A stretch of DNA of 64,000 nt from Eledone cirrhosa (lineage: Eukaryota). Shown here piece after piece: positions 7,501 through 56,127 of this stretch. Location of the stretch: assembly GCA_964016885.1 (NCBI GenBank), contig OZ024747.1, forward strand, positions 9,362,001 through 9,426,000, in the 5' to 3' direction. The notes below the pieces were generated by a model. It was not told where the DNA came from and searched no databases. It worked only from the letters and a program-made list of their open reading frames with translations. Position numbers and translations under genes: made by a program. Numbering within the stretch: the stretch's first letter is position 1; each line of letters opens with the position of its first letter.

Positions 7501-7957
7501 CAATATTAAATAAATGGAAAACTATATTTATAAAACCATATTTATTTCATTATATATATTTCGGGGATATCATATTAACAATATGCTATGCCTTCATCAG
7601 ACAAAATACAATATAAACAGTTTTATAGATAAATATATTCGACATACCGTAATAAACATCAACTTCATTTGAAGAGGTTTACTCTAGCAGTAAACCTCTT
7701 CAAATGAAGTTGATGTTTATTACGGTATGTCGAATATATTTATCTATAAAACTGTTTATATTGTATTTTGTCTGATGAAGGCATAGCATATTGTTAATAT
7801 GATATCCCCGAAATATATATAATGAAATAAATATGGTTTTATAAATATAGTTTTCCATTTATTTAATATTGTAAATATACTCCAAATATTTGTCGAGTGC
7901 TTTTATATCAGTTATAAATATTTACTAGTTGTAACCCAACAATTTTAAATATAACTT

Positions 7958-9792: not shown

Positions 9793-9897
9793 ATATATAT
9801 GTATAACGAAGGAATTGTGGTAAGGAACCAGATGGACCATAACGCACCAGAGTACTCAATACTTAGGTTAGTAGAGTGGGTAATAGGAAAAGATATG

Positions 9898-9993
9898 ACC
9901 CCGACGGCAGAGCTCAAGCCGTTTCGACGGCTATTTCTAGACTAAATTAGAATTTTTAGCCTGGTAAATAAATAGCCGAACTTATCAAGGGGT
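9898..9993 (-). ncRNA. Type I hammerhead ribozyme with U3-A8 core (family A, complete copy)
   Basis: Minus strand: ACCCC TTGATAA G-TT-CGGCTATTT...AAATAGCCG-T-C GAA ACGGC ttgagctct GCCGT C GGGGT. All three stems pair and the triplet is GUC. Confidence 0.82.
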
Positions 9994-10473
9994 ACTTCCT
10001 TATATGGGAAGATTGTAATTGTCAAGAGGATTGGTCAAAATTTGTTGTAAAGACAAATAAATCTTTCATGGCATTTGGTGGGAGGTATGGGTGGCTGAAC
10101 TTGCCGGTAGAACAAAGAGGGAGTGAGTAAAGCCTGTCAGGCGTTGAAAGTGAAATCTATACAGCAGATTCTAAGGATAGTGTATGAAAAGTCGAAAAAT
10201 TGTTCTGGAGAAAAGGAGGAGAGTTTAAAGAATAGGTATGTCGAATGGGAGTAGGAGACAATGAAAATAAAAAATATATATATAAAATTTAGATAGTGAG
10301 AAATGAATAACCCCACCCCCCACCAAAGAAAAACCAGTAGAGTCTAGAAAAAGATGCTATAATTAGTAGGTGTTGCTAATAGAAAAGTTTAGTAGGCAAA
10401 GCTATAGAAAAGTTTAATAAGTAGAGAATGGAAAATACTAAATAAGAAATTGTAGAAGTGGGTAGTGAAAAGT

Positions 10474-11406: not shown

Positions 11407-11413
<7 letters not shown>

Positions 11414-11576
11414 GTGACCTTTTTTTTACAAAATGAAAAATAACCGAGGTGTCTTACACGAGTGAAAGTATAAGGAAAAAAGCTGAAATCGAAAATGCAA
11501 CTGGAGTCTTTTTAAAAAAAAAAAATATTTATTTGGTTCCTTTACGCGTTTCGAAACCTGTAAAGGAACCAAATAA

Positions 11577-11580
<4 letters not shown>
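11407..11580 (-). mobile_element. Family G element; others at 12367-12443, 21929-22108 and 27159-27368
   Basis: Shared CGAGGTGTCCTACACGAGTGAAAGTATAA; short fold-back at 11527-11580. Confidence 0.88.
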
Positions 11581-12366: not shown

Positions 12367-12569
12367 ATGAAAATGAGTTTTTATTTTAAAATGAAAAAAA
12401 AAACGAGATGTCCTACACGAGTGAAAGTATAATGAAAAAAGATGTATATATATATGTATATATATAATTATATATATGTGTGTGTGTATACATACATGTA
12501 TATATATATCTATATATACATATATATATACATATAAATATACATATACATATCTACACACACACACAG

Positions 12570-12831: not shown

Positions 12832-13405
12832 ATCATCAACATCATCATCATCATCATTTTAAGTCCGCTTTTCCCTGCCTGCAAGGGTGGGACGGGTCCT
12901 ATTCAGCACAGCATCTCTCCACTTGTCACGGTCCTTCGTCATCTCCACCATGAGCTTCAGCGATCTGAGGTCTGTTCTCACCACCTCCGCCCATGTTTTT
13001 CGTGGTCTATCTCTACCACGTCTTCCTTCAACTGGCATTTCCTGGCACTTCTTCACCCATCGGTCATCCTCCATGCGCATCACATGTCCATGCCACCTCA
13101 GTCTCCTCTCTCGCACACTACATTCTATCCCTCTCAGACTCAGTTTCTCTCTCAACACATCCATGCTGGGTCGTTCATGCACATTGACATTGCACATCCA
13201 ACGGAGCATGCTTGCCTCATTTCTCTCCAGCCGTTGCATATCCTCTGCAGTTGCTGCCCATGTCCCACTACCATGCAGCATCGCGTTCCTCACACAGGCA
13301 TCATATAACCGGCCTTTCGTACGCAGGGAGAAACCCTTCTTCGTCAGCAGAGGAAGCAGTTCCCTAAACTTCTTCCAACCCGTCCTTATTCTAGATACTA
13401 TGGCC
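12832..13405 (-). mobile_element. RTE-clade LINE 3' fragment with (GAT)n tail
   Basis: ORF 12859-13293 has MLHGSGTW, MLRWMC, RRLRWHGHVMRM and RGRDRPRKTW (RTE C-terminal motifs). Tandem CAT tail at 12832-12857. Confidence 0.93.
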
Positions 13406-14905: not shown

Positions 14906-14944
14906 TGAACAAGTACTTTCATGCTTTCGCAATCTTCAGGTTCA
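14906..14944 (-). ncRNA. Minimal type I hammerhead ribozyme in the PLE pseudo-LTR (family K)
   Basis: TGAAC CTGAAGA T-TGC-gaaa-GCA-T GAAA G-TA-C TT GTTCA; stem III region is the palindrome AAGTACTT. Confidence 0.88.
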
Positions 14945-15352: not shown

Positions 15353-17560
15353 TTATTCATTCAGCTTGGGTTGAAATTTATCAATAAAATTCTTTTCTTT
15401 AATTTTTCTCTTGATTTCACTTGGGCTGTGTAGTTTGTAGAATGGAAATATTATAAACATTTTCTGAGCACATGTTGCTAGATGGTTACTCAGGGGTATC
15501 TTACGGACTTTTGGGTCTCTGATTTGTTGTCGGTGCACCCGTGCACGTTCCGATAGTGCATTTCCAGTTTGACCGACATATAGTTCTTCACAATCCGGGT
15601 ATTTAATGCAGTAAATTAGATTTCTGCTTTTGCAGTTCATATTTGCATTTGGGAATATTTTTCCAGTTTTTGTGTTCATATATTGACCAGTATGTATGAA
15701 CTGACATGTGTCACATCGACTATCATTTCATTTAGATACAGTGAATGATTGGTCTTTGTTGTTAAGGTCAAATTTTGCCTTTGTTAGTAATTGCTTCAAA
15801 TTTTTCGGCTGTCTTTTACTAAGAGTCAAAGCTCGATCTGTGATTAAACCTTTTAATTCATTACTTTGAGCAATGATCGGTAGGCTTGTTTTGGAAGTGT
15901 TGGAGATATTCTGGTGACATGGGTTGTGTGTCATTATAAATGGTATGACCAGTTCTTGGTTTCTTCTTCCTTGGGTTGTCCTAAGTTGTTGTATAGGTAT
16001 TTTTATAGCCCGCTGTATGCCATTTTCTATAAGTAGAGATGGGTATTTTTGTTTGAGCAAAAATTCTCTCAGTTCTGTTAGGCGTTTGTTCCTGGTATTT
16101 GTATCTTCTACAATGGTACAAATTCTTCTGGTTAAGCAGTATGGGGTGTTGCGTTTTGTATGAGGTGAATGGCACGACTTAAAATTCAGATATTGATGGG
16201 TGTCTGTGTGTTTATAGTATATATCCGTGGTAATGGTGGTGTCGTTTTTCATTACCATTATATCTAGGAATGGTAATTTGGTACTACTCATCTCTTTTGT
16301 AAATTGGACAGATGGGTGTAGGTTATTCAGAGTATCTAGAGATTCTGTCCAGATGATGAAACAGTCGTGAAGGTTAATCTTCCAAGACTTTTCAATGTAC
16401 TTTCTAAAGTCAGTACTATATTTTTCCTCTATTTCTTGGTAGAGTTGTTGTTCTAAGTATCCCATTACAAAGTTCGCGTAAACGGGAGCAAACTTCGTTC
16501 CCATCGCTGTGCCTCTAATTTGGATGTAATTCTTTCCATTGAAGAAGAATGTGTTGTTTTCCAGAATAAGTTTGACTGCATTTAATATAAATGGCGCTGT
16601 GAATCTGGTTGGAATCACTTCTCTATGTTTTTCCACCCAGTATTTAACCGCTTTTATTCCTAAATCATGTGCAATGTTGGTGTAAAGGCTTACCACATCA
16701 AAACTAAGTAGAAGTGAATTCGTTTCCGTGGTTTTGGGAACATGGGAGAGGAAGTCGATATCATCCCGGATGAAACTGGGTATGTGAATACATAGTGGTT
16801 TCAAAATAATGTCAACAAAATTGCTTAGACGGTGGGTAGGGCATGTTGGACAGCTATAATATGTCTAAGTTTTAAGTCTTTTGGGTGTAGTAATTTAATG
16901 TACTCACTGTTTTGTTCTTTTACTGCCAGTTGGATTTCTTTTGACTTATGAATTTTCGGCAAGCCATACAGGTTGCTGGGTTTTGGCTCAAAATTGGTGA
17001 TGTAGTCTCTTTCCTTATCAGTAAGTGAGTTGTGGTATTTTGAAGCCAGGTTGTTGATCTTCTTCATGATGTTGTGGTCTATATTTGACGGTATTTCATG
17101 GTAGAATGTTGTGTCTTTCAGTTGTTCCTCAACCAAATCTTTGTAGTTTCAGTATCCATTATAACAATTACACCCCCTTTATCTGCTTGTTTAATTATTA
17201 TTGTTTTATCATTTTGTATACGTTTAAGTGCAGACATTTCCGATTTGTTAATGTTTGGCCTAACATTAGTATTACGTCTAAGAGGAAATTTAGACAGGAT
17301 GTCAACGTATTGGTCGAGATAGGTATTTCTTCCTTTTGGCGGAGTGAAATTTGATTTATTCTTTACTAGTGATTCATCACTCTCATTACTTTTATCAGCG
17401 AAGAATTCTACAAGTCCTGATTTACGACAGAATTCTTGGGTATCCTCCTTTAGTTCTTGGTGGTTGACTGTTGGAGTCGGTGTGAATTTCAGTCCTTTTG
17501 ATAGAATTTGCATTTCATCATTGTCAAGATCTCTTTTGGATAAATTAATTATTTTAGGAT
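15353..17560 (-). pseudogene. PLE reverse transcriptase plus GIY-YIG endonuclease ORF, with two frameshifts and one in-frame TGA
   Basis: LSKGLKFTPTP, IIIKQADKGG, LYGLPKIHK, SFDVVSLYTNI, GTAMGTKFAPVYAN, degenerate YxDD (INLHDCF), LPFLDI, RCDTC, NLIYCI..LYVGQT..RARVH. Confidence 0.95.
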
Positions 17561-18284
17561 CTACGTGTTCAGTTGTTTTGGGTATGTTTCCTCCTGGAGT
17601 TTTTCTTTTTCCGGTTTTTGTTGTCCTGACGTTAAAAAATGGATTTTTCTCTGTTCAGGATTTATATTCCTGTTGGTGTTTGTTTGATGAACTTTTGGTC
17701 GTGATATTATACTTAGTTTCGTTATGTTTTTGTCCTATTTTTGGTATTATGTATATTATTTTTCCATTTCTTGTTAGCATTATTTATGGGGTCGACTGTT
17801 ACATGGATATTACTTTTGAGGGACTTTAAAGTACCGTATCAGTAGCAGAAGCCCAACTGATCTCTGACTGAATATATAAAAATTCACTGAATTACAGTAA
17901 TATTACCCATACTCTGCATCAAAACATATGTCTTAGGCATAGGTTTGAGCAAAGTTTTAGTTTCACACATGTATTTGTAATGATATAAAGTTGCCTTAAA
18001 TTCATGACAATCTTGTAACAGTGTTGTTTCTACGTACAGGATGATACCACAAATGTTGACAATACAGTATAAGTATATAAGACAATAAGTATAAAGAAAG
18101 TGTTCCATTGCAGAACTGCTATAAAGATAGTTTATAAAATAGGGTGAAGACCCTTAAATGACGGAAAAAAAGTTGCCATTGTGCGTTTGGGATTTTCTAA
18201 GAATTTCCAACGCTCCGATATTTTCGATATATATATATTTATATATGCACGAGGGTGAGTCATTAATTGTCTGTATTACATTTA

Positions 18285-18636
18285 AATGAAGTAATTCCGT
18301 CGGAAAGGTCCAGGAAAAAAGAGTGCTCTATGTAGGTTACAGAGCTTATTAGTTATGTAATAAACAACATAAGATAATTATTTCATTTACCAGTGGTTTC
18401 TTGAAAGCAAACAAATCTGCTTTCAGTCATTAGAATGAAAAAATCCTCGTGTTTTTATTGAATGTGGATTTGAAAACAAAAATATAAGAAATATTTCTTA
18501 TATTTTTGTTTTCAAATCCACATTCAATAAAAACACGAGGATTTTTTCATTCTGATGACTGAAAGCAGATTTGTTTGCTTTCAAGAAACCACTGGTAAAT
18601 GAAATAATTATCTTATGTTGTTTATTACATAACTAA
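18285..18636. mobile_element. Family I fold-back HHR element with 13-bp target-site duplication; second copy at 31320-31623, related family I2 at 37808-38060
   Basis: TGTATTACATTTA at 18272-18284 and 18637-18649; palindrome centred at 18492/18493 with arms about 145 bp. Confidence 0.93.
18545..18604 (+). ncRNA. Type I hammerhead ribozyme (family I)
   Basis: TTTCATT CTGATGA c-TGAAAGCAGA-tttg-TTTGCTTTCA-a GAAA CC-act-GG TA AATGAAA; GUA triplet. Confidence 0.85.
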
Positions 18637-21147: not shown

Positions 21148-21547
21148 AGATCAAAAGATGGTTAAAGGAGTTCCATATATTTTATTATGCGCATTTCAAA
21201 AACAAACATCATCAAACAATAATATTTGTGTTTTCATCAGATAAAACAGGAGAACATGATATGAAGGCTAAAAAACACTTGTTGATAGTGCAGTTTTAAA
21301 TCAACATATCCTGCACTATCAACAAGTGTTTTTTAGCCTTCATATCATGTTCTCCTGTTTTATCTGATGAAAACACAAATATTATTGTTTGATGATGTTT
21401 GTTTTTGAAATGCGCATAATAAAATATATGGAACTCCTTTAACCATCTTTTGATCTTATATTATGCATACTCCAGTCCCACAAACTGTAGAGTGCTTCTT
21501 ATCCGATATCTGCATTGCTTTATTGTACTACAATAAAACTCACCTCC

Positions 21548-21884: not shown

Positions 21885-21935
<51 letters not shown>

Positions 21936-22103
21936 GTGAGGTTTCTTTTACAAAATGAAAAATAATCGAGGTGTCCTACACGAGTGAAAGTATAAAGAAA
22001 AGAAGATGAAATCGAAAATGCAACTGGAGTCTTTTTAGAAAAAAAAAAAAAATTATTTGGTTCCTTTACCGGTTTCGAGTTGAGATGGAGGGTCTGTGGT
22101 TTT

Positions 22104-22141
<38 letters not shown>

Positions 22142-22621: not shown

Positions 22622-22747
22622 ATAAATGGAAACTATATTTATAAAACCATATCTATTTCATTATATATATTTCAGGGATATCATATTAAAAATATGCTAT
22701 GCCTTCCTCAGACAAAATACAATATAAACAGTTAACTGTTTATATTG

Positions 22748-22813
22748 TATTTTGTCTGAGGAAGGCATAGCATATTGTTAATATGATATCCCTGAAATAT
22801 ATATAATGAAATA
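22748..22813 (+). ncRNA. Minimal hammerhead ribozyme (family B, CTGAGGA); identical motifs at 29434-29499 and 44015-44080
   Basis: Same fold as 7764-7829, with stem II closed by AGG/CCT. Confidence 0.82.
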
Positions 22814-27055: not shown

Positions 27056-27295
27056 CATATATACATACATACATACATATATATATATGACAGAATTAGC
27101 CGTCGAAACGGCTTGAGCTCAGCCGTCGGGATCTTATTTACTCCTATATATATATATATTAGAAAGTGAGGTTTTTTTTACAAATTGAAAAATAACCGAG
27201 GTATCCTACACGAGTGAAAGTATAAAGAAAAAAAGATGAATTCGAAAATGCAACTGGAGTCTTATTTAAAAAAATATATATATATTTATTTGGTT

Positions 27296-27333
27296 CCTTT
27301 ACCGGTTTCGCAGTTCTTCTGCTTTTCAAAAGG
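27296..27333 (-). ncRNA. 38-nt minimal hammerhead with U3-A8 core (family G)
   Basis: CCTT TTGAAAA GCAG-aagaa-CTGC GAAA C-CG-G TA AAGG. Confidence 0.8.
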
Positions 27334-27413
27334 TGAGTTGAGATGGAGGGTCTGTGGTTTTTCTCACATATATATATTTCTGTAGAAACAATTATTATTT
27401 TCTTTTATATATA

Positions 27414-31262: not shown

Positions 31263-31531
31263 CTATATATATATAACTCTCTCTCTCTCTATATATATAT
31301 ATATATGTATGTATGTATGAATGAAGTAATTCCGTCGGAAAAAGTGTAGGAAAAAAGAGTGCTCTATGTAGGTAACAGAGCTTAATAGTTATGTAATAAA
31401 CAACATAAGGCAATTATTTCATTTACCAGTGGTTTCTTAAATGCAAACAAATTTTGCTTTCAATCATCAGAATGAAAAAATCCTGGTGTATTTATTGGCA
31501 TTGGATTTTGCCAATAAATACACCAGGATTT

Positions 31532-31592
31532 TTTCATTCTGATGATTGAAAGCAAAATTTGTTTGCTTTTAAGAAACCACTGGTAAATGAAA
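31532..31592 (+). ncRNA. Type I hammerhead ribozyme (family I, second copy)
   Basis: CTGATGA at 31539, GAAA at 31573, same stems as 18545-18604. Confidence 0.85.
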
Positions 31593-31699: not shown

Positions 31700-32750
<1,051 letters not shown>

Positions 32751-37810: not shown

Positions 37811-37962
37811 GGTAATTCCGAAGAAAAAGCAAAGGAAAAATGAGTGCTCTATGTATAGAACAGAGCTATTTAATTAGAAAGTGAACAACACAAGATATAA
37901 CTACTCCATTACCAAAGGTTTCTGGATCCCAGACAATATTAATATACGTCTGGATCGTGCAT

Positions 37963-38030
37963 CTCTGTCTGATGAACGCTCTAGACGTGTATTAATATTG
38001 TCTGGGATCCAGAAACCTTTGGTAATGGAG
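37963..38030 (+). ncRNA. Type I hammerhead (family I2)
   Basis: CTCTGT CTGATGA ...TCTAGAC..GTCTGGG... GAAA CC-ttt-GG TA ATGGAG; base of stem II imperfect. Confidence 0.7.
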
Positions 38031-38053
38031 TAGTTATATATTGTGTTGTTCAC

Positions 38054-38206
<153 letters not shown>

Positions 38207-40997: not shown

Positions 40998-41955
40998 TTA
41001 ACGGCGCTGCGATCGAATGTGGCTATTTAGCCCAGCCAATGATCTAAAATGTCTTGCACAGAGTCGGCAACCAAAACATTCACTGGGAATAGCCAGCTGT
41101 GGTTGGAGTTCGTGTACTTTTGCATGTCGCTTGAGCCCTCCTGCTGATTTACATTCTCTACCACATGCTTGGCAAGCATGAGGAGTAGCATCTCCAACAG
41201 CAGCCTGGTAGTCAACCACTGGTCTTACTTTATGACTGCGAAGATGACTTTCGAGTCCAGCTTTGCTTAGGCAGAGTCTCGCACAGACGCTGCCTGTCAG
41301 CGCCATAGGAGGACCTTCGCCGTCTGGAAATGCAACAGCTATGCCCTTCCTCACATCCCGCTTTACTTTCTCGTATGCGATTCGAGATGCCTCAAAGGCA
41401 ACTTTCCCCTCATATACAGTCTTTCTCCATTTATTACGATCAGCAGCAACATTTTCCCATGTATCAGCAGAGATGTTAGCGTCTTTCAAAGAGGCTTTCA
41501 AGAAATCCTTATACCTCTTTTTTGGTTTATGTGGTGGTCGTTTTCCTTTAACTAACTCTCCTTAAAAGAGTTGTTTTGGTATTCTAGAATCCTTCATCCT
41601 GGCAAGGTGACCACTCCACCGGAGTCGTTGCTTAAGCACAAGAGCTTTCCAAAATCTCGACATCACTGATGTGGTCCCTCCATGGATCCGTCTGAGACAC
41701 ATCTGATGGAAACGCTCCAATTGCTTAAGGTGGTGTCGATATGTGACCCAGGTCTCGCAGGCATAAAGAAGAGAAGAGAGAACACATGCCGTGTACACCT
41801 TTACCTTTGTCTTCTTGCATATGTCTCGCCGACCCCAGAGTCGTCTTTCTAGCTTTCCGAAAGCATCACTTGCTTTCCTAATCCTCAGTGGGATTTCATT
41901 ATCAAGGTTGTTGTATCGATTGACAGTGCTTCCCAGGTAGACAAACTGATCAACT
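40998..41955 (-). mobile_element. RTE/BovB-like LINE 3' fragment with C2H2-type zinc fingers, frameshifted
   Basis: VDQFVYLGS, VLSSLLYACETW, RLRWSGHLARM..RIPKQL, DRNKWR, then CQAC..LKRHAKVH and two degenerate fingers. Confidence 0.93.
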
Positions 41956-42018
41956 ACATACACACATACATACATACATACATACATACATACATACATA
42001 CATACATACATACATACA

Positions 42019-42628
42019 TGGTGGCTGCCAACTCGTTTTCGAGTACGGCCACTACTTTATATCCATGTAGGAGAACCCCTACTGATGCGCTGAACGAGTG
42101 TGACTTTTTAGTCCAGCCAGCGACTTGAAAACTCTGGTACAAACACTACACTTGTGACAATTATTGACACATAGTGTTGGGCCCATGGTACCATGTGACG
42201 ACAAGTGCAGAGAGATCTCCAGATATAAAGCAATGCCTGTGCCGTGAAGCTTTTATAGTGAGCAAAGGCACTGCACAAAGCCAGTCCCACTCTCTTAACC
42301 AAGATGATATTTACCAAAAAGAAGAACAAGTCAACATCATTGGATACCATCAGGGTTGCAGGTGTTATATCAGAGTTTTCCTTCTCCTAGAATTCTGCCT
42401 TGACAAAGGCTAAGGGGTCATCTCTCCCGGTGATTTTGGATGGACATTGACTCTTAAGAGCTCCTTTTCCCTTTGACAAGTTTTGTTTTTAGTCCTGTAG
42501 GATGTCCAAAGTCACCCTCCTCACCAAGAAACCTTGGTGGGGTTGCCAGTTTAGTCGCCAACGACCCGACCATGAGGCAGGTTGTACTGGGATACATGTT
42601 ACCAGTAGCACCAACTGGTGACCTGACA
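42019..42628 (-). mobile_element. Longest copy (about 610 bp) of the non-autonomous RTE-like element, flanked by (CATA)n
   Basis: Homology to the 35121 and 36525 copies plus an extra 5' portion. Confidence 0.88.
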
Positions 42629-43369: not shown

Positions 43370-43540
43370 TATATCTATACATATATTGGCGTGTTTAGTC
43401 CTCCGCTGCCATGGAGGTAATAAACTATGTCCATGGCGTCCCAGGCTATTGACTACTCCCGGAGAAAGACAAGAAAGACAACAGACTTTTAAGATTTTTT
43501 GCTCTTTTTTTGCTTTGACTGCATGCCCATATATGGATTG

Positions 43541-43637
43541 TACCCCTTTATAAGTTCAGCTAGGTTCCTGCCGTTCTAATACTGGTGGCTTAGTATGGGT
43601 CTAGCTGTCGAAACGGCCGGAGCTCAGCCATCAGGGA
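43541..43637 (+). ncRNA. Family A hammerhead, variant subfamily, probably inactivated
   Basis: TACCCC TTTATAA (G5>U) GTT CAGCTAG...CTAGCTG TC GAAACGGC..GCCATC AGGG. Confidence 0.65.
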
Positions 43638-44206
43638 CATGAATCTTTTCATATTTCCCACTCTACTACCCGAAGTATCGAGTACTCTGGTGCATTATGG
43701 TCCACCTGGTATCTTACCACTCCTTCGTTGTTGTTATATATATATATATTTACAATATTAAATAAATGGAAACTATATTTATAAAACCATATTTATTTCA
43801 TTATATATATTTCAGGGATATCATATTAACAATATGCTATGCCTTCCTCAGACAAAATACAATATAAACAGTTTTATAGATAAATAGATTCGACATACCG
43901 TAATAACATCGACTTGCATTTGAAGAGGTTGATATGCCATATCAACCTCTTCAAATGCAAGTCGATGTTATTACGGTATGTCGAATCTATTTATCTATAA
44001 AACTGTTTATATTGTATTTTGTCTGAGGAAGGCATAGCATATTGTTAATATGATATCCCTGAAATATATATAATGAAATAAATATGGTTTTATAAATATA
44101 GTTTCCATTTATTTAATATTGTAAATATACTCCAAATATTTGTCGAGTGCTTTTATATCAGTTATAAATATTTACTAGTTGTAACCCAACAATTTTAAAT
44201 ATAACT

Positions 44207-46580: not shown

Positions 46581-49500
46581 CTACCACCACTGACAACATA
46601 ACATACACAACATACACAACCACAACCAACACCACCATCACCACCATCAACACTACAACTACCAACACTACCACCACTAACAACACAACATAACCAACCA
46701 CAACCAACACCACCATCAACACTACAACTACCAACACTACCACCACTAACAACACAACATACACAAACCACAACCATCACCACCATCACTACTAAACTAC
46801 CAACACTACCACCACTAACAACACAACATAACCAACCACAACCAACACCACCTTCACCACCATCACCACTACAACTACCAACACTACCACCACTAACAAC
46901 ACAACATAACCAACCACAACCAACACCACCATCACCACCATCAACACTACAACTACCAACACTACCACCACTAACAACACAACATAACCAACCACAACCA
47001 ACACCACCATCACCACCATCACCACTAAACTACCAACACTACCACCACTAACAACACAACATAACCAACCACAACCAACACCACCATCACCACCATCACC
47101 ACTACAACTACCAACACTACCACCACTAACAACACAACATACACAAACCACAACCAACACCACCATCACCACCATCACCACTAAACTACCAACACTACCA
47201 CCACTAACAACACAACATAACCAACCACAACCAACACCACCATCACCACCATCAACACTACAACTACCAACACTACCACCACTAACAACACAACATAACC
47301 AACCACAACCAACACCACCATCACCACCATCACCACTAAACTACCAACACTACCACCACTAACAACACAACATAACCAACCACAACCAACACCACCATCA
47401 CCACCATCAACACTACAACTACCAACACTACCACCACTAACAACTCAACATAACCAACCGCAACCAACACCACCATCACCACCATCACCACTAAACTACC
47501 AACACTACCACCACTAACAACACAACATAACCAACCACAACCAACACCACCATCACCACGATCACCACTACAACTACCAACACTACCACCACTAACAACA
47601 CAACATACACAAACCACAACCAACACCACCATCACCACCATCACCACTAAACTACCAACACTACCACCACTAACAACACAACATAACCAACCACAACCAA
47701 CACCACCATCACCACCATCAACACTACAACTACCAACACTACCACCACTAACAACACAACATACCCAACCACAACCAACACCACCATCACCACTACAACT
47801 ACCAACACTACCACCACTAACAACACAACATACACAACCACAACCATCACCACCATCAACACTACAACTACCAACACTACCACCACTAACAACACAACAT
47901 ACCCAAACCACCACCATCACCACCATCAACACTACAACTACCAACACTACCACCACTAACAACACAACATACCCAACCACAACCAACACCACCATCACCA
48001 CCATCACCACTACCAACACTACCACCACTAACAACACAACATACCCAAACCACCACCATCACCACCATCAACACTACAACTACCAACACTACCACCACTA
48101 ACAACACAACATACACAACCACAACCATCACCACCATCAACACTACAACTACCAACACTACCACCACTAACAACGCAACATACCCAAACCACCACCATCA
48201 CCACCATCAACACTACAACTACCAACACTACCACCACTAACAACACAACATACCCAACCACAACCAACACCATCATCAACACTACAACTACCAACACTAC
48301 CACCACTAACAACACAACATACACAACCACAACCATCACCACCAACAACACTAAAACTACCAACACTACCACCACTAACAACACAACATACACAAACAAC
48401 AACCAACACCACCATCACCACTACAACTACCAACACTACCACCACTAACAACACAACATACACAACCACAACCATCACCACCAACAACACTACAACTACC
48501 AACACTACCACCACTAACAACACAACATACACAAACCACAACCAACACCACCATCACCACTATAACTACCAACACTACCACCACTAACAACACAACATAC
48601 ACAACCACAACCATCACCACCAACAACACTACAACTACCAACACTACCACCACTAACAACACAACATACCCAACCACAACCAACACCACCATCAACACTA
48701 CAACTACCAACACTACCACCACTAACAACACAACATACACAACCACAACCATCACCACCAACAACACTACAACTACCAACACTACCACCACTAACAACAC
48801 AACATACACAAACCACAACCAACACCACCATCACCACTACAACTACCAACACTACCACCACTAACAACACAACATACACAAACCACAACCATCACCACCA
48901 TCACCACTACAACTACCAACACTACCACCACTAACAACACAACATACACAACCACAACCATCACCACCAACAACACTACAACTACCAACACTACCACCAC
49001 TAACAACACAACATACACAAACCACAACCAACACCACCATCACCACTACAACTACCAACACTACCACCACTAACAACACAACATACACAACCACAACCAT
49101 CACCACCAACAACACTACAACTACCAACACTACCACCACTAACAACACAACATACACAAACCACAACCATCACCACCATCACCACTACAACTACCAACAC
49201 TACCACCACTAACAACACAACATACACAACCACAACCATCACCACCAACAACACTACAACTACCAACACTACCACCACTAACAACACAACATACACAAAC
49301 CACAACCATCACCACCATCACCACTACAACTACCAACACTACCACCACTAACAACACAACATACACAACCACAACCATCACCACCAACAACACTACAACT
49401 ACCAACACTACCACCACTAACAACACAACATACACAAACCACAACCAACAACACCATCACCACTACAACTACCAACACTACCACCACTAACAACACAACA

Positions 49501-52500
49501 TACACAACCACAACCATCACCACCAACAACACTACAACTACCAACACTACCACCACTAACAACACAACATACACAAACCACAACCATCACCACCATCACC
49601 ACTACAACTACCAACACTACCACCACTAACAACACAACATACACAACCACAACCATCACCACCAACAACACTACAACTACCAACACTACCACCACTAACA
49701 ACACAACATACACAAACCACAACCATCACCACCATCACCACTACAACTACCAACACTACCACCACTAACAACACAACATACACAACCACAACCATCACCA
49801 CCAACAACACTACAACTACCAACACTACCACCACTAACAACACAACATACACAAACCACAACCATCACCACCATCACCACTACAACTACCAACACTACCA
49901 CCACTAACAACACAACATACTCAACCACAGCCATCGCCACCAACAACACTACAACTACCAACACTACCACCACTAACAACACAACATACTCAACCACAAC
50001 CATCACCACCAACAACACTACAACTACCAACACTACCACCACTAACAACACAACATACACAAACTACAACCAACACCACCATCACCACTACAACTACCAA
50101 CACTACCACCACTAACAACACAACATACACAACCACAACCATCACCACCAACAACACTACAACTACCAACACTACCACCACTAACAACACAACATACACA
50201 AACCACAACCATCACCACCATCACCACTACAACTACCAACACTACCACCACTAACAACACAACATACACAACCACAACCATCACCACCAACAACACTACA
50301 ACTACCAACACTACCACCACTAACAACACAACATACACAACCACAGCCATCGCCACCAACAACACTACAACTACCAACACTACCACCACTAACAACACAA
50401 CATACACAAACCACAACCATCACCACCATCACCACTACAACTACCAACACTACCACCACTAACAACACAACATACACAACCACAACCATCACCACCATCA
50501 CCACCAACAACACTACAACTACCAACACTACCACCACTAACAACACAACATACACAAACCACAACCAACACCACCATCACCACTACAACTACCAACACTA
50601 CCACCACTAACAACACAACATACACAAACCACAACCAACACAACCATCACCACCATCAACACTACAACTACCAACACTACCACCACTAACAACACAACAT
50701 ACACAAACCACAACCAACACAACCATCACCACCAACAACACTACAACTACCAACACTACCACCACTAACAACACAACATACACAAACCACAACCATCACC
50801 ACCATCACCACTACAACTACCAACACTACCACCACTAACAACACAACATACACAACCACAACCATCACCACCATCACCACCAACAACACTACAACTACCA
50901 ACACTACCACCACTAACAACACAACATACACAAACCACAACCAACACCACCATCACCACTACAACTACCAACACTACCACCACTAACAACACAACATACA
51001 CAAACCACCACCAACACAACCATCACCACCATCAACACTACAACTACCAACACTACCACCACTAACAACACAACATACACAAACCACAACCAACACAACC
51101 ATCACCACCATCACTACTACAACTACCAACACTACCACCACTAACAACACAACATACACAAACCACAACCAACACCACCATCAACACTACAACTACCAAC
51201 ACTACCACCACTAACAACACAACATACACAAACCACAACCAACACCACCATCACTACTACAACTACCAACACTACCACCACTAACAACACAACATACACA
51301 AACCACAACCATCACCACCATCACCACCATCACTACTACAACTACCAACACTACCACCACTATCAACACAACATACACAAACCACCACCAACACAACCAT
51401 CACCACCATCACTACTACAACTACCAACACTACCACCACTAACAACACAACATACACAAACCACAACCATCACCACCATCACCACCATCACTACTACAAC
51501 TACCAACACTACCACCACTAACAACACAACATACACAAACCACCACCAACACAACCATCACCACCATCACTACTACAACTACCAACACTACCACCACTAA
51601 CAACACAACATACACAAACCACAACCATCACCACCATCACTACTACAACTACCAACACTACCACCACTAACAACACAACATACACAAACCACAACCATCA
51701 CCACCATCACCACCATCACTACTACAACTACCAACACTACCACCACTAACAACACAACATACACAAACCACCACCAACACAACCATCACCACCATCACTA
51801 CTACAACTACCAACACTACCACCACTAACAACACAACATACACAAACCACAACCATCACCACCATCACTACTACAACTACCAACACTACCACCACTAACA
51901 ACACAACATACACAAACCACAACCATCACCACCATCACTACTACAACTACCAACACTACCACCACTAACAACACAACATACACAACCACAACCAACACCA
52001 CCATCACCACCATCACCACTACAACTACCAACACTACCACCACTAACAACACAACATACACAAACCACAACCATCACCACCATCACCACCATCACTACTA
52101 CAACTACCAACACTACCACCACTAACAACACAACATACACAAACCACAACCATCACCACCATCACCACCATCAACACTACAACTACCAACACTACCACCA
52201 CTAACAACACAACATACCCAACCACAACCAACACCACCATCACCACTACAACTACCAACACTACCACCACTAACAACACAACATACACAAACCACAACCA
52301 TCACCACCATCACCACCATCAACACTACAACTACCAACACTACCACCACTAACAACACAACATACCCAACCACAACCAACACCACCATCAACACTACAAC
52401 TACCAACACTACCACCACTAACAACACAACATACCCAACCACAACCAACACCACCATCACCACTACAACTACCAACACTACCACCACTAACAACACAACA

Positions 52501-55500
52501 TACACAAACCACAACCAACACCACCATCACCACTACAACTACCAACACTACCACCACTAACAACACAACATAACCAACCACAACCAACACCACCATCACC
52601 ACCATCAACACTACAACTACCAACACTACCACCACTAACAACACAACATACACAAACCACAACCATCACCACCATCACCACCATCACTACTACAACTACC
52701 AACACTACCACCACTAACAACACAACATACACAAACCACAACCAACACCACCATCACCACCATCACTACTACAACTACCAACACTACCATCACTAACAAC
52801 ACAACATACACAAACCACAACCAACACCACCATCACCACCATCAACACTACAACTACCAACACTACCATCACTAACAACACAACATACCCAACCACAACC
52901 ATCACCACCATCACCACCATCAACACTACAACTACCAACACTACCACCACTAACAACACAACATACACAAACCACAACCATCACCACCATCACCACCATC
53001 AACACTACAACTACCAACACTACCACCACTAACAACACAACATACACAAACCACAACCATCACCACCATCACCACCATCAACACTACAACTACCAACACT
53101 ACCACCACTAACAACACAACATACACAAACCACAACCATCACCACCATCACCACCATCAACACTACAACTACCAACACTACCACCACTAACAACACAACA
53201 TACCCAACCACAACCAACACCACCATCACCACTACAACTACCAACACTACCACCACTAACAACACAACATACACAAACCACAACCATCACCACCATCACC
53301 ACCATCACTACTACAACTACCAACACTACCACCACTAACAACACAACATACACAAACCACCACCAACACAACCATCACCACCATCACTACTACAACTACC
53401 AACACTACCACCACTAACAACACAACATACACAAACCACAACCATCACCACCATCACCACCATCACTACTACAACTACCAACACTACCACCACTAACAAC
53501 ACAACATACACAAACCACCACCAACACAACCATCACCACCATCACTACTACAACTACCAACACTACCACCACTAACAACACAACATACACAAACCACAAC
53601 CATCACCACCATCACTACTACAACTACCAACACTACCACCACTAACAACACAACATACACAAACCACAACCATCACCACCATCACCACCATCACTACTAC
53701 AACTACCAACACTACCACCACTAACAACACAACATACACAAACCACCACCAACACAACCATCACCACCATCACTACTACAACTACCAACACTACCACCAC
53801 TAACAACACAACATACACAAACCACAACCATCACCACCATCACTACTACAACTACCAACACTACCACCACTAACAACACAACATACACAAACCACAACCA
53901 TCACCACCATCACCACCATCACTACTACAACTACCAACACTACCACCACTAACAACACAACATACACAACCACAACCAACACCACCATCACCACCATCAC
54001 CACTACAACTACCAACACTACCACCACTAACAACACAACATACACAAACCACAACCATCACCACCATCACCACCATCACTACTACAACTACCAACACTAC
54101 CACCACTAACAACACAACATACACAAACCACAACCATCACCACCATCACCACCATCAACACTACAACTACCAACACTACCACCACTAACAACACAACATA
54201 CCCAACCACAACCAACACCACCATCACCACTACAACTACCAACACTACCACCACTAACAACACAACATACACAAACCACAACCATCACCACCATCACCAC
54301 CATCAACACTACAACTACCAACACTACCACCACTAACAACACAACATACCCAACCACAACCAACACCACCATCAACACTACAACTACCAACACTACCACC
54401 ACTAACAACACAACATACCCAACCACAACCAACACCACCATCACCACTACAACTACCAACACTACCACCACTAACAACACAACATACACAAACCACAACC
54501 AACTCCACCATCACCACTACAACTACCAACACTACCACCACTAACAACACAACATAACCAACCACAACCAACACCACCATCACCACCATCAACACTACAA
54601 CTACCAACACTACCACCACTAACAACACAACATACACAAACCACAACCATCACCACCATCACCACCATCACTACTACAACTACCAACACTACCACCACTA
54701 ACAACACAACATACACAAACCACAACCAACACCACCATCACCACCATCACTACTACAACTACCAACACTACCATCACTAACAACACAACATACACAAACC
54801 ACAACCAACACCACCATCACCACCATCAACACTACAACTACCAACACTACCATCATTAACAACACAACATACCCAACCACAACCATCACCACCATCACCA
54901 CCATCAACACTACAACTACCAACACTACCACCACTAACAACACAACATACACAAACCACAACCATCACCACCATCACCACCATCAACACTACAACTACCA
55001 ACACTACCACCACTAACAACACAACATACACAAACCACAACCATCACCACCATCACCACCATCAACACTACAACTACCAACACTACCACCACTAACAACA
55101 CAACATACACAAACCACAACCATCACCACCATCACCACCATCAACACTACAACTACCAACACTACCACCACTAACAACACAACATACCCAACCACAACCA
55201 ACACCACCATCACCACTACAACTACCAACACTACCACCACTAACAACACAACATACACAACCACAACCAACACCACCAACACCACCATCACCACTACAAC
55301 TACCAACACTACCACCACTAACAACACAACATACTCAAACCACCACCATCACCACCATCACCACTACAACTACCAACACTACCACCACTAACAACACAAC
55401 ATACCCAACCACAACCAACACCACCATCAACACTACAACTACCAACACTACCACCACTAACAACACAACATACTCAAACCACAACCAACACCACCATCAC

Positions 55501-56110
55501 CACTACAACTACCAACACTACCACCACTAACAACACAACATACTCAAACCACCACCATCACCACCATCAACACTACAACTACCAACACTACCACCACTAA
55601 CAACACTACATACACAACCACAACCAACACCACCATCACCACTACAACTACCAACACTACCACCACTAACAACACAACATACTCAAACCACCACCATCAC
55701 CACCATCACCACTACAACTACCAACACTACCACCACTAACAACACAACATACCCAACCACAACCAACACCACCATCACCACTACAACTACCAACACTACC
55801 ACCACTAACAACACAACATACTCAAACCACAACCAACACCACCATCAACACTACAACTACCAACACTACCACCACTAACAACACAACATACACAACCACA
55901 ACCAACACCACCATCACCACCATCAACACTACAACTACCAACACTACCACCACTAACAACACAACATACCCAACCACAACCAACACCACCATCACCACTA
56001 CAACTACCAACACTACCACCACTAACAACACAACATACTCAAACCACAACCAACACCACCATCACCACTACAACTACCAACACTACCACCACTAACAACA
56101 CAACATACAA
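46581..56110. repeat. 9.5-kb C/A-rich satellite, monomer about 69-79 bp, with higher-order structure
   Basis: Constant ACTACAACTACCAACACTACCACCACTAACAACACAACATA plus a variable tail that changes in 9-bp steps; almost no G on the + strand. Confidence 0.97.
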
Positions 56111-56127
56111 CAACCATCTATTATATA

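Follow-up and report, generated by a model that had tools for sequence, protein, structure and literature searches.

Within the stretch of DNA that we analysed (64 kb, hereafter the window), 38 nucleotides of the minus strand at 27296-27333 form a complete type I hammerhead motif with a U3-A8 core. From its anatomy and context, the motif is very probably a minimal hammerhead of the kind carried by Penelope-like elements (PLEs), and of the published U3-A8 subtype. It lies in one copy of a short dispersed repeat, here called family G. The explanation that we favour, and consider probable as a whole, is that this small hammerhead descends from the pseudo-LTR of a PLE, that U3-A8 was inherited, that cutting took place in tandem dimers, and that the window holds a truncated copy set in a (TA)n tract.

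Anatomy of the 38-nt motif and its expectation by chance

Read from 27333 to 27296, the minus strand gives CCUU / UUGAAAA / GCAG-AAGAA-CUGC / GAAA / CCGG / UA / AAGG. A U3-A8 hammerhead had been proposed here in an earlier, sequence-only reading of the same DNA, and sequence and anatomy agree with that proposal over 38 nt. The parts of the motif are as follows:

27296-27333, minus strand: type I hammerhead with U3-A8 core, 38 nt, read from the sequence and found by descriptor scan
27330-27333, minus strand: 5′ strand of stem I, partner 27296-27299, 4/4 pairs Watson-Crick
27323-27329, minus strand: core U3 U4 G5 A6 A7 A8 A9, with U3 at 27329 and A8 at 27324
27310-27322, minus strand: stem-loop II, 4 bp including G10.1-C11.1, loop of 5 nt, no extra base after A9
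27301-27306, no strand assigned: palindrome ACCGGT (A15.1 to U16.1), modelled as joining two copies through a 6-bp helix III

The motif thus has the three helices of type I, the core N3-U4-G5-A6-N7-N8-A9 / G12-A13-A14, the A15.1-U16.1 pair and an H17; all stem pairs are Watson-Crick and the type I anatomy is complete. The cleavage triplet is GUA, with a predicted cut after A17 (27300). The canonical C3-G8 identity is replaced by U3-A8, a published variant, and positions 3 and 8 are Watson-Crick compatible in this copy of family G. The small size had been singled out as noteworthy, which we do not uphold: 38 nt is ordinary, because a canonical-core hammerhead of 37 nt also lies within the window (14907-14943), and published rows measure 34 and 38 nt.

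The expectation by chance was estimated from 2530 block-wise dinucleotide shuffles of the whole 64-kb window. The full descriptor (U3-A8, palindrome and G10.1-C11.1) found 0 matches in these shuffles, U3-A8 with the palindrome found 9, U3-A8 with wobble stems 34 (0.013 per window), and the loosest form (any letters at 3 and 8, wobble stems) 555 (0.22 per window). Because the strict descriptor was fitted after the motif had been seen, a fair chance range is 0.001-0.013 per window; the motif is non-random. That it is a mere hammerhead-like string in AT-rich repeat DNA is therefore hardly credible. Such a reading can point to the loosest descriptor, to a monomer fold that is not unusually stable (z -0.94), and to an Rfam scan of the window at the gathering threshold, which gave 0 hits and no hammerhead. 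It is opposed by the empty count for the full descriptor, by the conservation of the hammerhead 3′ half in every family G copy that reaches that part, and by the abundance of similarly built hammerheads in the window (more than 20). Two weak Rfam matches around the motif (MALAT1 and CRISPR-DR47, E 0.2-0.8) are unrelated and were dismissed as chance.

Family G and the other hammerheads of the window

The window is AT-rich, laden with microsatellites and probably from an animal genome, in which a SINE may point to a cephalopod. It holds four copies of family G:

27160-27372, minus strand: copy 1, 213 bp, carries the 38-nt motif, (TA)n on both flanks
21930-22114, minus strand: copy 2, both ends as in copy 1, 25-nt deletion through the hammerhead, 168/185 aligned letters as in copy 1
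11408-11580, no strand assigned: copy 3, cut short within the hammerhead, with a fold-back at 11552/11553
12367-12447, minus strand: copy 4, diverged 3′-end fragment without the hammerhead part, 66/81 letters as in copy 1

Copies 1 and 2 coincide at their ends within about 2 nt despite an identity of 91%. Copy 2 is missing exactly 25 nt, comprising the 5′ strand of stem I, the core and most of stem II, with the junction at ~22076/22077. The loss of core and stem II by a deletion of about 25 nt had been noted earlier and is confirmed, while the position then given (22066-22085) was slightly off, the hammerhead remnant lying at 22063-22076. Copy 3 had been described as folding back at the GAAA, and its centre (11552/11553) does fall inside TTTC/GAAA, the arms pairing over ~27 bp with 2 mismatches. 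The core is retained by only one of the four copies (copy 1), and stems I and II are both present in one copy only. All three copies that extend into the 3′ half retain it as GAAAC-NN-GTA-AAGG (4/4 arms). At the helix III palindrome, two copies have ACCGGT, and the two arms of copy 3 have ACGCGT and ACCTGT. The ACGCGT loop variant was considered as covariation and discounted, and it may postdate insertion, because its twin arm disagrees. An open frame of ~70 codons through copy 1 was likewise rejected as a gene, because it is interrupted by indels of copies 2 and 3.

An ORF belonging to family G was not found within the 64-kb window, nor does a tandem array of its unit occur among the 99 tandem-repeat rows of the window; the copies are dispersed. 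All three long copies, one of which folds back, have (TA)n at their ends. PLEs are reported to insert in (TA)n, to be truncated and to leave fold-back or inverted copies (10.1101/2021.04.23.441226, as far as its accessible text goes), and truncation, inverted copies and microsatellite targets are all seen in family G. Since the family is without an ORF, its PLE origin rests on analogy, and from this likeness we infer that copy 1 would be a short, truncated, ORF-less remnant inserted in a (TA)n tract.

Beyond the window, family G is abundant: 2012 contigs of one sequencing run and 1975 reads of another cover the same 98 bases, in a comparison that took in 98 of the 209 family G bases (the half without the hammerhead) and 4 of the 19 listed runs. 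Sampled family G words are present in 14 runs under 11 organism labels; the contig and read alignment took in 3 of these 14 and one additional raw-read run. No RNA run was among those listed, which speaks neither for nor against the abundant linear and circular RNA typical of non-LTR retrozymes. Exact-pattern scans for further copies gave 0 in metagenome contigs, viral contigs and prokaryote genomes. At about 27221-27225, many family G contigs and reads stop in (TA)n, which leaves ~60 bases to the end at 27160; by analogy, the two preferred downstream ends may recall the 'tail' ends of PLEs.

Hammerheads are common in the window. Scanning both strands with a descriptor gave 14 of type I, 13 with C3-G8 and one with U3-A8 (the 38-nt motif), and beside family G there are at least five further hammerhead-bearing repeat families, many as inverted pairs. 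Features outside family G include:

9893-9996, minus strand: family A hammerhead, U3-A8, C17, long stem II, 5-bp stem III, z -2.59
About 43526-43659, plus strand: diverged family A copy, T3 and A8 kept (near 43543), G5 lost
15353-17654, minus strand: broken Penelope-type element, weak RVT_1 match, GIY-YIG above cut-off
14907-14943, minus strand: 37-nt C3-G8 hammerhead, U17, 6-nt palindromic helix III, ~410 bases past the stop of the broken element
21178-21426, 22654-22813, 31417-31592, 43794-44080, 7528-7844 and 18366-18619: C3-G8 hammerhead inverted pairs of three families, all A17

The family A hammerhead can probably fold as a monomer. T3 and A8 are present in both family A copies that retain the 5′ half, and 19 of the 21 family A matches span the 3′ half only, often as fold-back pairs; no family A ORF was seen in the window either. 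Families G and A had been called unrelated, and at the sequence level we agree, as no significant similarity was found outside the core, although in short non-coding repeats this is no proof of two origins. The hammerhead of the broken PLE (14907-14943) differs from the family G motif. In one of the three inverted-pair families helix III is an AT-only palindrome, ATATATAT. At about 37875-38060 there is a long imperfect hairpin with a C3-G8 hammerhead core and a very long stem II. Positions 46621-56116 and 59066-63874 are occupied by CA-rich tandem arrays of great length and extreme GC skew (a 79-bp unit in ~127 copies, and also periods of 3, 15 and 45 bp). Other fragments resembling LINE reverse transcriptase or mariner-type transposase were noticed by eye at 12859-13404, 40998-42056 and 32146-32532; a Pfam scan of two of them gave no hit.

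Predicted dimer folding, probable origin of U3-A8 and competing explanations

In the energy model, closing A15.1-U16.1 costs energy in the monomer (+0.7 vs -4.7 kcal/mol), and the two-strand model builds the 6-bp palindromic helix III with a probability of 0.999. The earlier claim of a dimer-type palindromic stem III is therefore supported, the 6-nt ACCGGU being present, and as modelled the palindromic helix is stable only as a dimer. We envisage that tandem copies in the transcript of the source element would swap strands, that their palindromes would join as the 6-bp helix III, and that each core of the tandem dimer would then cut after GUA; a double hammerhead of this form has been proposed for PLE motifs. 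The lowest-energy predictions for monomer and dimer both pair U3 with A17, which lengthens stem I; this pair has a predicted probability of 0.56 (monomer) and 0.46 (dimer), and the fold that contains it is better than the active-type fold by 1.7 and 1.4 kcal/mol, respectively, figures that show only that a competing pair exists, because the tertiary 3-8 pair is unscored by the model. Two local control motifs with C3 and A17 gave a 3:17 pairing probability of 0.0, because C and A do not pair. When the 213-nt unit was folded alone, the predicted probability was 0.014 for stem I and 0.27 for stem II.

Since U3 can pair with A17, in the manner of the inhibitory C3-G17 pair, weak cutting is predicted. 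The C3-G17 pair is the presumed basis of the NUH rule, and G17 lowered the rate of one hammerhead ~20-fold (PMC3884650, accessible text). The published activity of U3-A8 hammerheads, in the portions of the sources available, is mixed: they are called active in vitro with reference to an earlier paper (PMC3088659), and in a saturation mutagenesis activity was rescued only by a G3:C8 swap and not by U3:A8 (PMC9901934). Minimal PLE hammerheads cleave weakly even as dimers (PMC4209133, in the text available), and in a lizard PLE cleavage was protein-dependent and dispensable for insertion in vitro (PMC11167929, in the text available). For the source element we expect that cleavage would have been slow and dimer- or protein-dependent, because stems I and II have 4 bp each, the 3-8 pair is the weaker U-A, and the U3:A17 alternative exists. 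The sole near-full sibling of copy 1 (copy 2) lies 5 kb off and is without a core; as a solitary copy without an intact tandem partner, copy 1 is probably inert.

A different view of the same letters is that U3-A8 with A17 is the true state but barely cleaves, the transposon RNA retaining the motif for its structure or for protein binding. Such a view overlaps with the explanation that we favour and differs from it in activity alone, and we regard it as unlikely, if worth keeping in mind. The modelled U3:A17 pairing in monomer and dimer speaks for it, as do the slowing of one hammerhead by the analogous G17 (PMC3884650, in part) and the lizard PLE, which cut only with protein and inserted in vitro independently of cleavage (PMC11167929, in part); on the other side, the catalytic letters and the 3-8 pairing are all intact, a state that would scarcely be expected unless the active fold were under selection, and in vitro activity is stated for U3-A8 ribozymes in the accessible part of PMC3088659. 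The vehicle may also be seen differently. Family G could be a fixed-length, non-autonomous unit of ~210 nt (a solo non-LTR retrozyme or a SINE-like PLE derivative) for which a PLE enzyme uses the unit's own small RNA as template, and not a piece cut randomly out of the pseudo-LTR of a full element; the ribozyme reading would be unchanged. The shared ends of copies 1 and 2 at 91% identity would fit such a unit, the length is one that non-LTR retrozymes also have (170-400 nt; PMC7229834, accessible text), and retrozymes have been argued to be non-autonomous PLE derivatives with solo forms (10.64898/2026.07.22.740005, accessible text). Yet the unit forms no tandem array in the window, its upstream end is defined by two copies only, retrozyme hammerheads are mostly canonical with loop-loop contacts (as far as PMC7229834 is available), and many contigs and reads end ~60 nt earlier downstream, in the manner of alternative PLE 'tail' ends; on balance this view seems rather improbable. 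Less likely again is a combined version, in which family G is an abundant, non-autonomous PLE derivative of fixed length (~210 nt) in several related species, equipped with a U3:A17 brake and with a U3-A8 acquired independently of that in the monomer-type U3-A8/C17 hammerhead of family A. Here U3:A17 would extend stem I and hold back the core until remodelling by a second copy or by the PLE protein, and would so be nature's equivalent of the inhibitory C3-G17 pair.

The favoured explanation also supposes that U3-A8 would have come from the source element and not from decay in copy 1, and inheritance of this kind we hold to be highly likely. The contrary supposition, by which the family core is canonical C3-G8 and copy 1 acquired U3-A8 by two transitions after insertion (C to T and G to A), appears to us a slim chance. 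The core is indeed known from one copy only, both changes run from GC to AT in an AT-biased genome, and at least six hammerhead families of the window are C3-G8 against two U3-A8; moreover, A17 is usual among the local C3-G8 families, is absent from both published U3-A8 rows and clashes with U3, which gives a slight lean towards a C3-G8 ancestor. Copy 1, however, is little diverged: it deviates from the majority at 3 of the 98 sites compared, all in the half without the hammerhead, and from copy 2 at 1 of 37 upstream columns, and the remainder of the 38-nt motif is perfect. Position 3 or 8 is changed in none of the 20 canonical cores of the window, although several of these are twins within inverted pairs and do not count separately. 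For a per-site rate between 0.03 and 0.075 and a prior between 2/56 and 1/6, inheritance is favoured over double decay by odds of 7:1 to 220:1. Word sharing points the same way: two runs from other organisms contain 10/20 and 8/20 of the sampled 31-letter family G words, and the contigs of both differ from copy 1 at several sites in the compared half. A shared core accounts for this 2 to 120 times better than a differing core, a weak line of evidence in that the estimate depends on how much of the A/T tract is shared and uses the same 20 words for both runs, with the sampling scheme unspecified and some records omitted.

Published relatives of the motif

The closest published company of the motif is the set of minimal PLE hammerheads described by Cervera and De la Pena (2014; PMC4209133), to which the following comparisons refer within the accessible text and alignment of that paper. 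Like family G, these are type I, with a short stem I, G10.1-C11.1 and a palindromic 15.2-16.2, and they are mostly solitary. In Schistosoma mansoni, Cercyon PLEs are reported there to show U3-A8 covariation, with ~1,300 hits that are for the most part single motifs, and in the 56-row alignment two rows are U3-A8, one of them (Cercyon) having the UUGAAAA core of family G, while one further row has U3 with G8. The shortest rows are 34 nt by our count from the alignment. A row from Marsupenaeus (shrimp) resembles family G in its length (38 nt, again by our count), 4-bp stem II, absence of an extra base after position 9, 6-nt palindrome and A17. Family G differs from most rows in having no extra base after A9, from the three printed mollusc rows in that these are all C3-G8, and from the two printed U3-A8 rows in that it combines U3-A8 with A17, whereas these carry U17 and G17. 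The place expected of a PLE hammerhead is the pseudo-LTR of an element with Penelope reverse transcriptase and GIY-YIG endonuclease; family G has no ORF in the window.

C3-G8 covaries to U3-A8 in several natural hammerheads outside this set (Perreault et al. 2011, PMC3088659), and the text available gives these examples, unlike family G, no link with PLE repeats or a dimer-type helix III. A short palindromic stem III is shared by family G and the small PLE variants of Lunse, Weinberg and Breaker, which cleave as dimers according to the accessible part of a review (PMC6765202). Non-LTR retrozymes are likewise non-coding units of ~200 nt that contain a type I hammerhead (PMC7229834; 10.64898/2026.07.22.740005), and family G differs from them, as described in those portions, in having no tandem array and no room for the canonical contacts between loops 1 and 2.

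The recurrence of U3-A8, which the sequence-only reading had suggested, is already in print, both for PLEs (PMC4209133) and for other natural hammerheads (PMC3088659), at least as seen in their accessible parts. That reading also suggested that the variant is functional, which would rest on the single copy with a core, where a U3:A17 pair may damp activity. The swapped U-A core and the need for a partner copy are published, and family G is a fresh example of them. Our literature search, with most subscription papers outside its coverage, returned nothing on PLE hammerheads of cephalopods or on U3 with A17, and the combination of U3-A8 with A17, which may already have been published, is the sole feature for which we found no match in print. 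Family G adds one family and one animal genome to the published U3-A8 PLE hammerheads. The window offers a modest test case for core variants, in that it holds side by side motifs of 37-38 nt with C3-G8/U17 and U3-A8/A17, and a long motif with U3-A8/C17.
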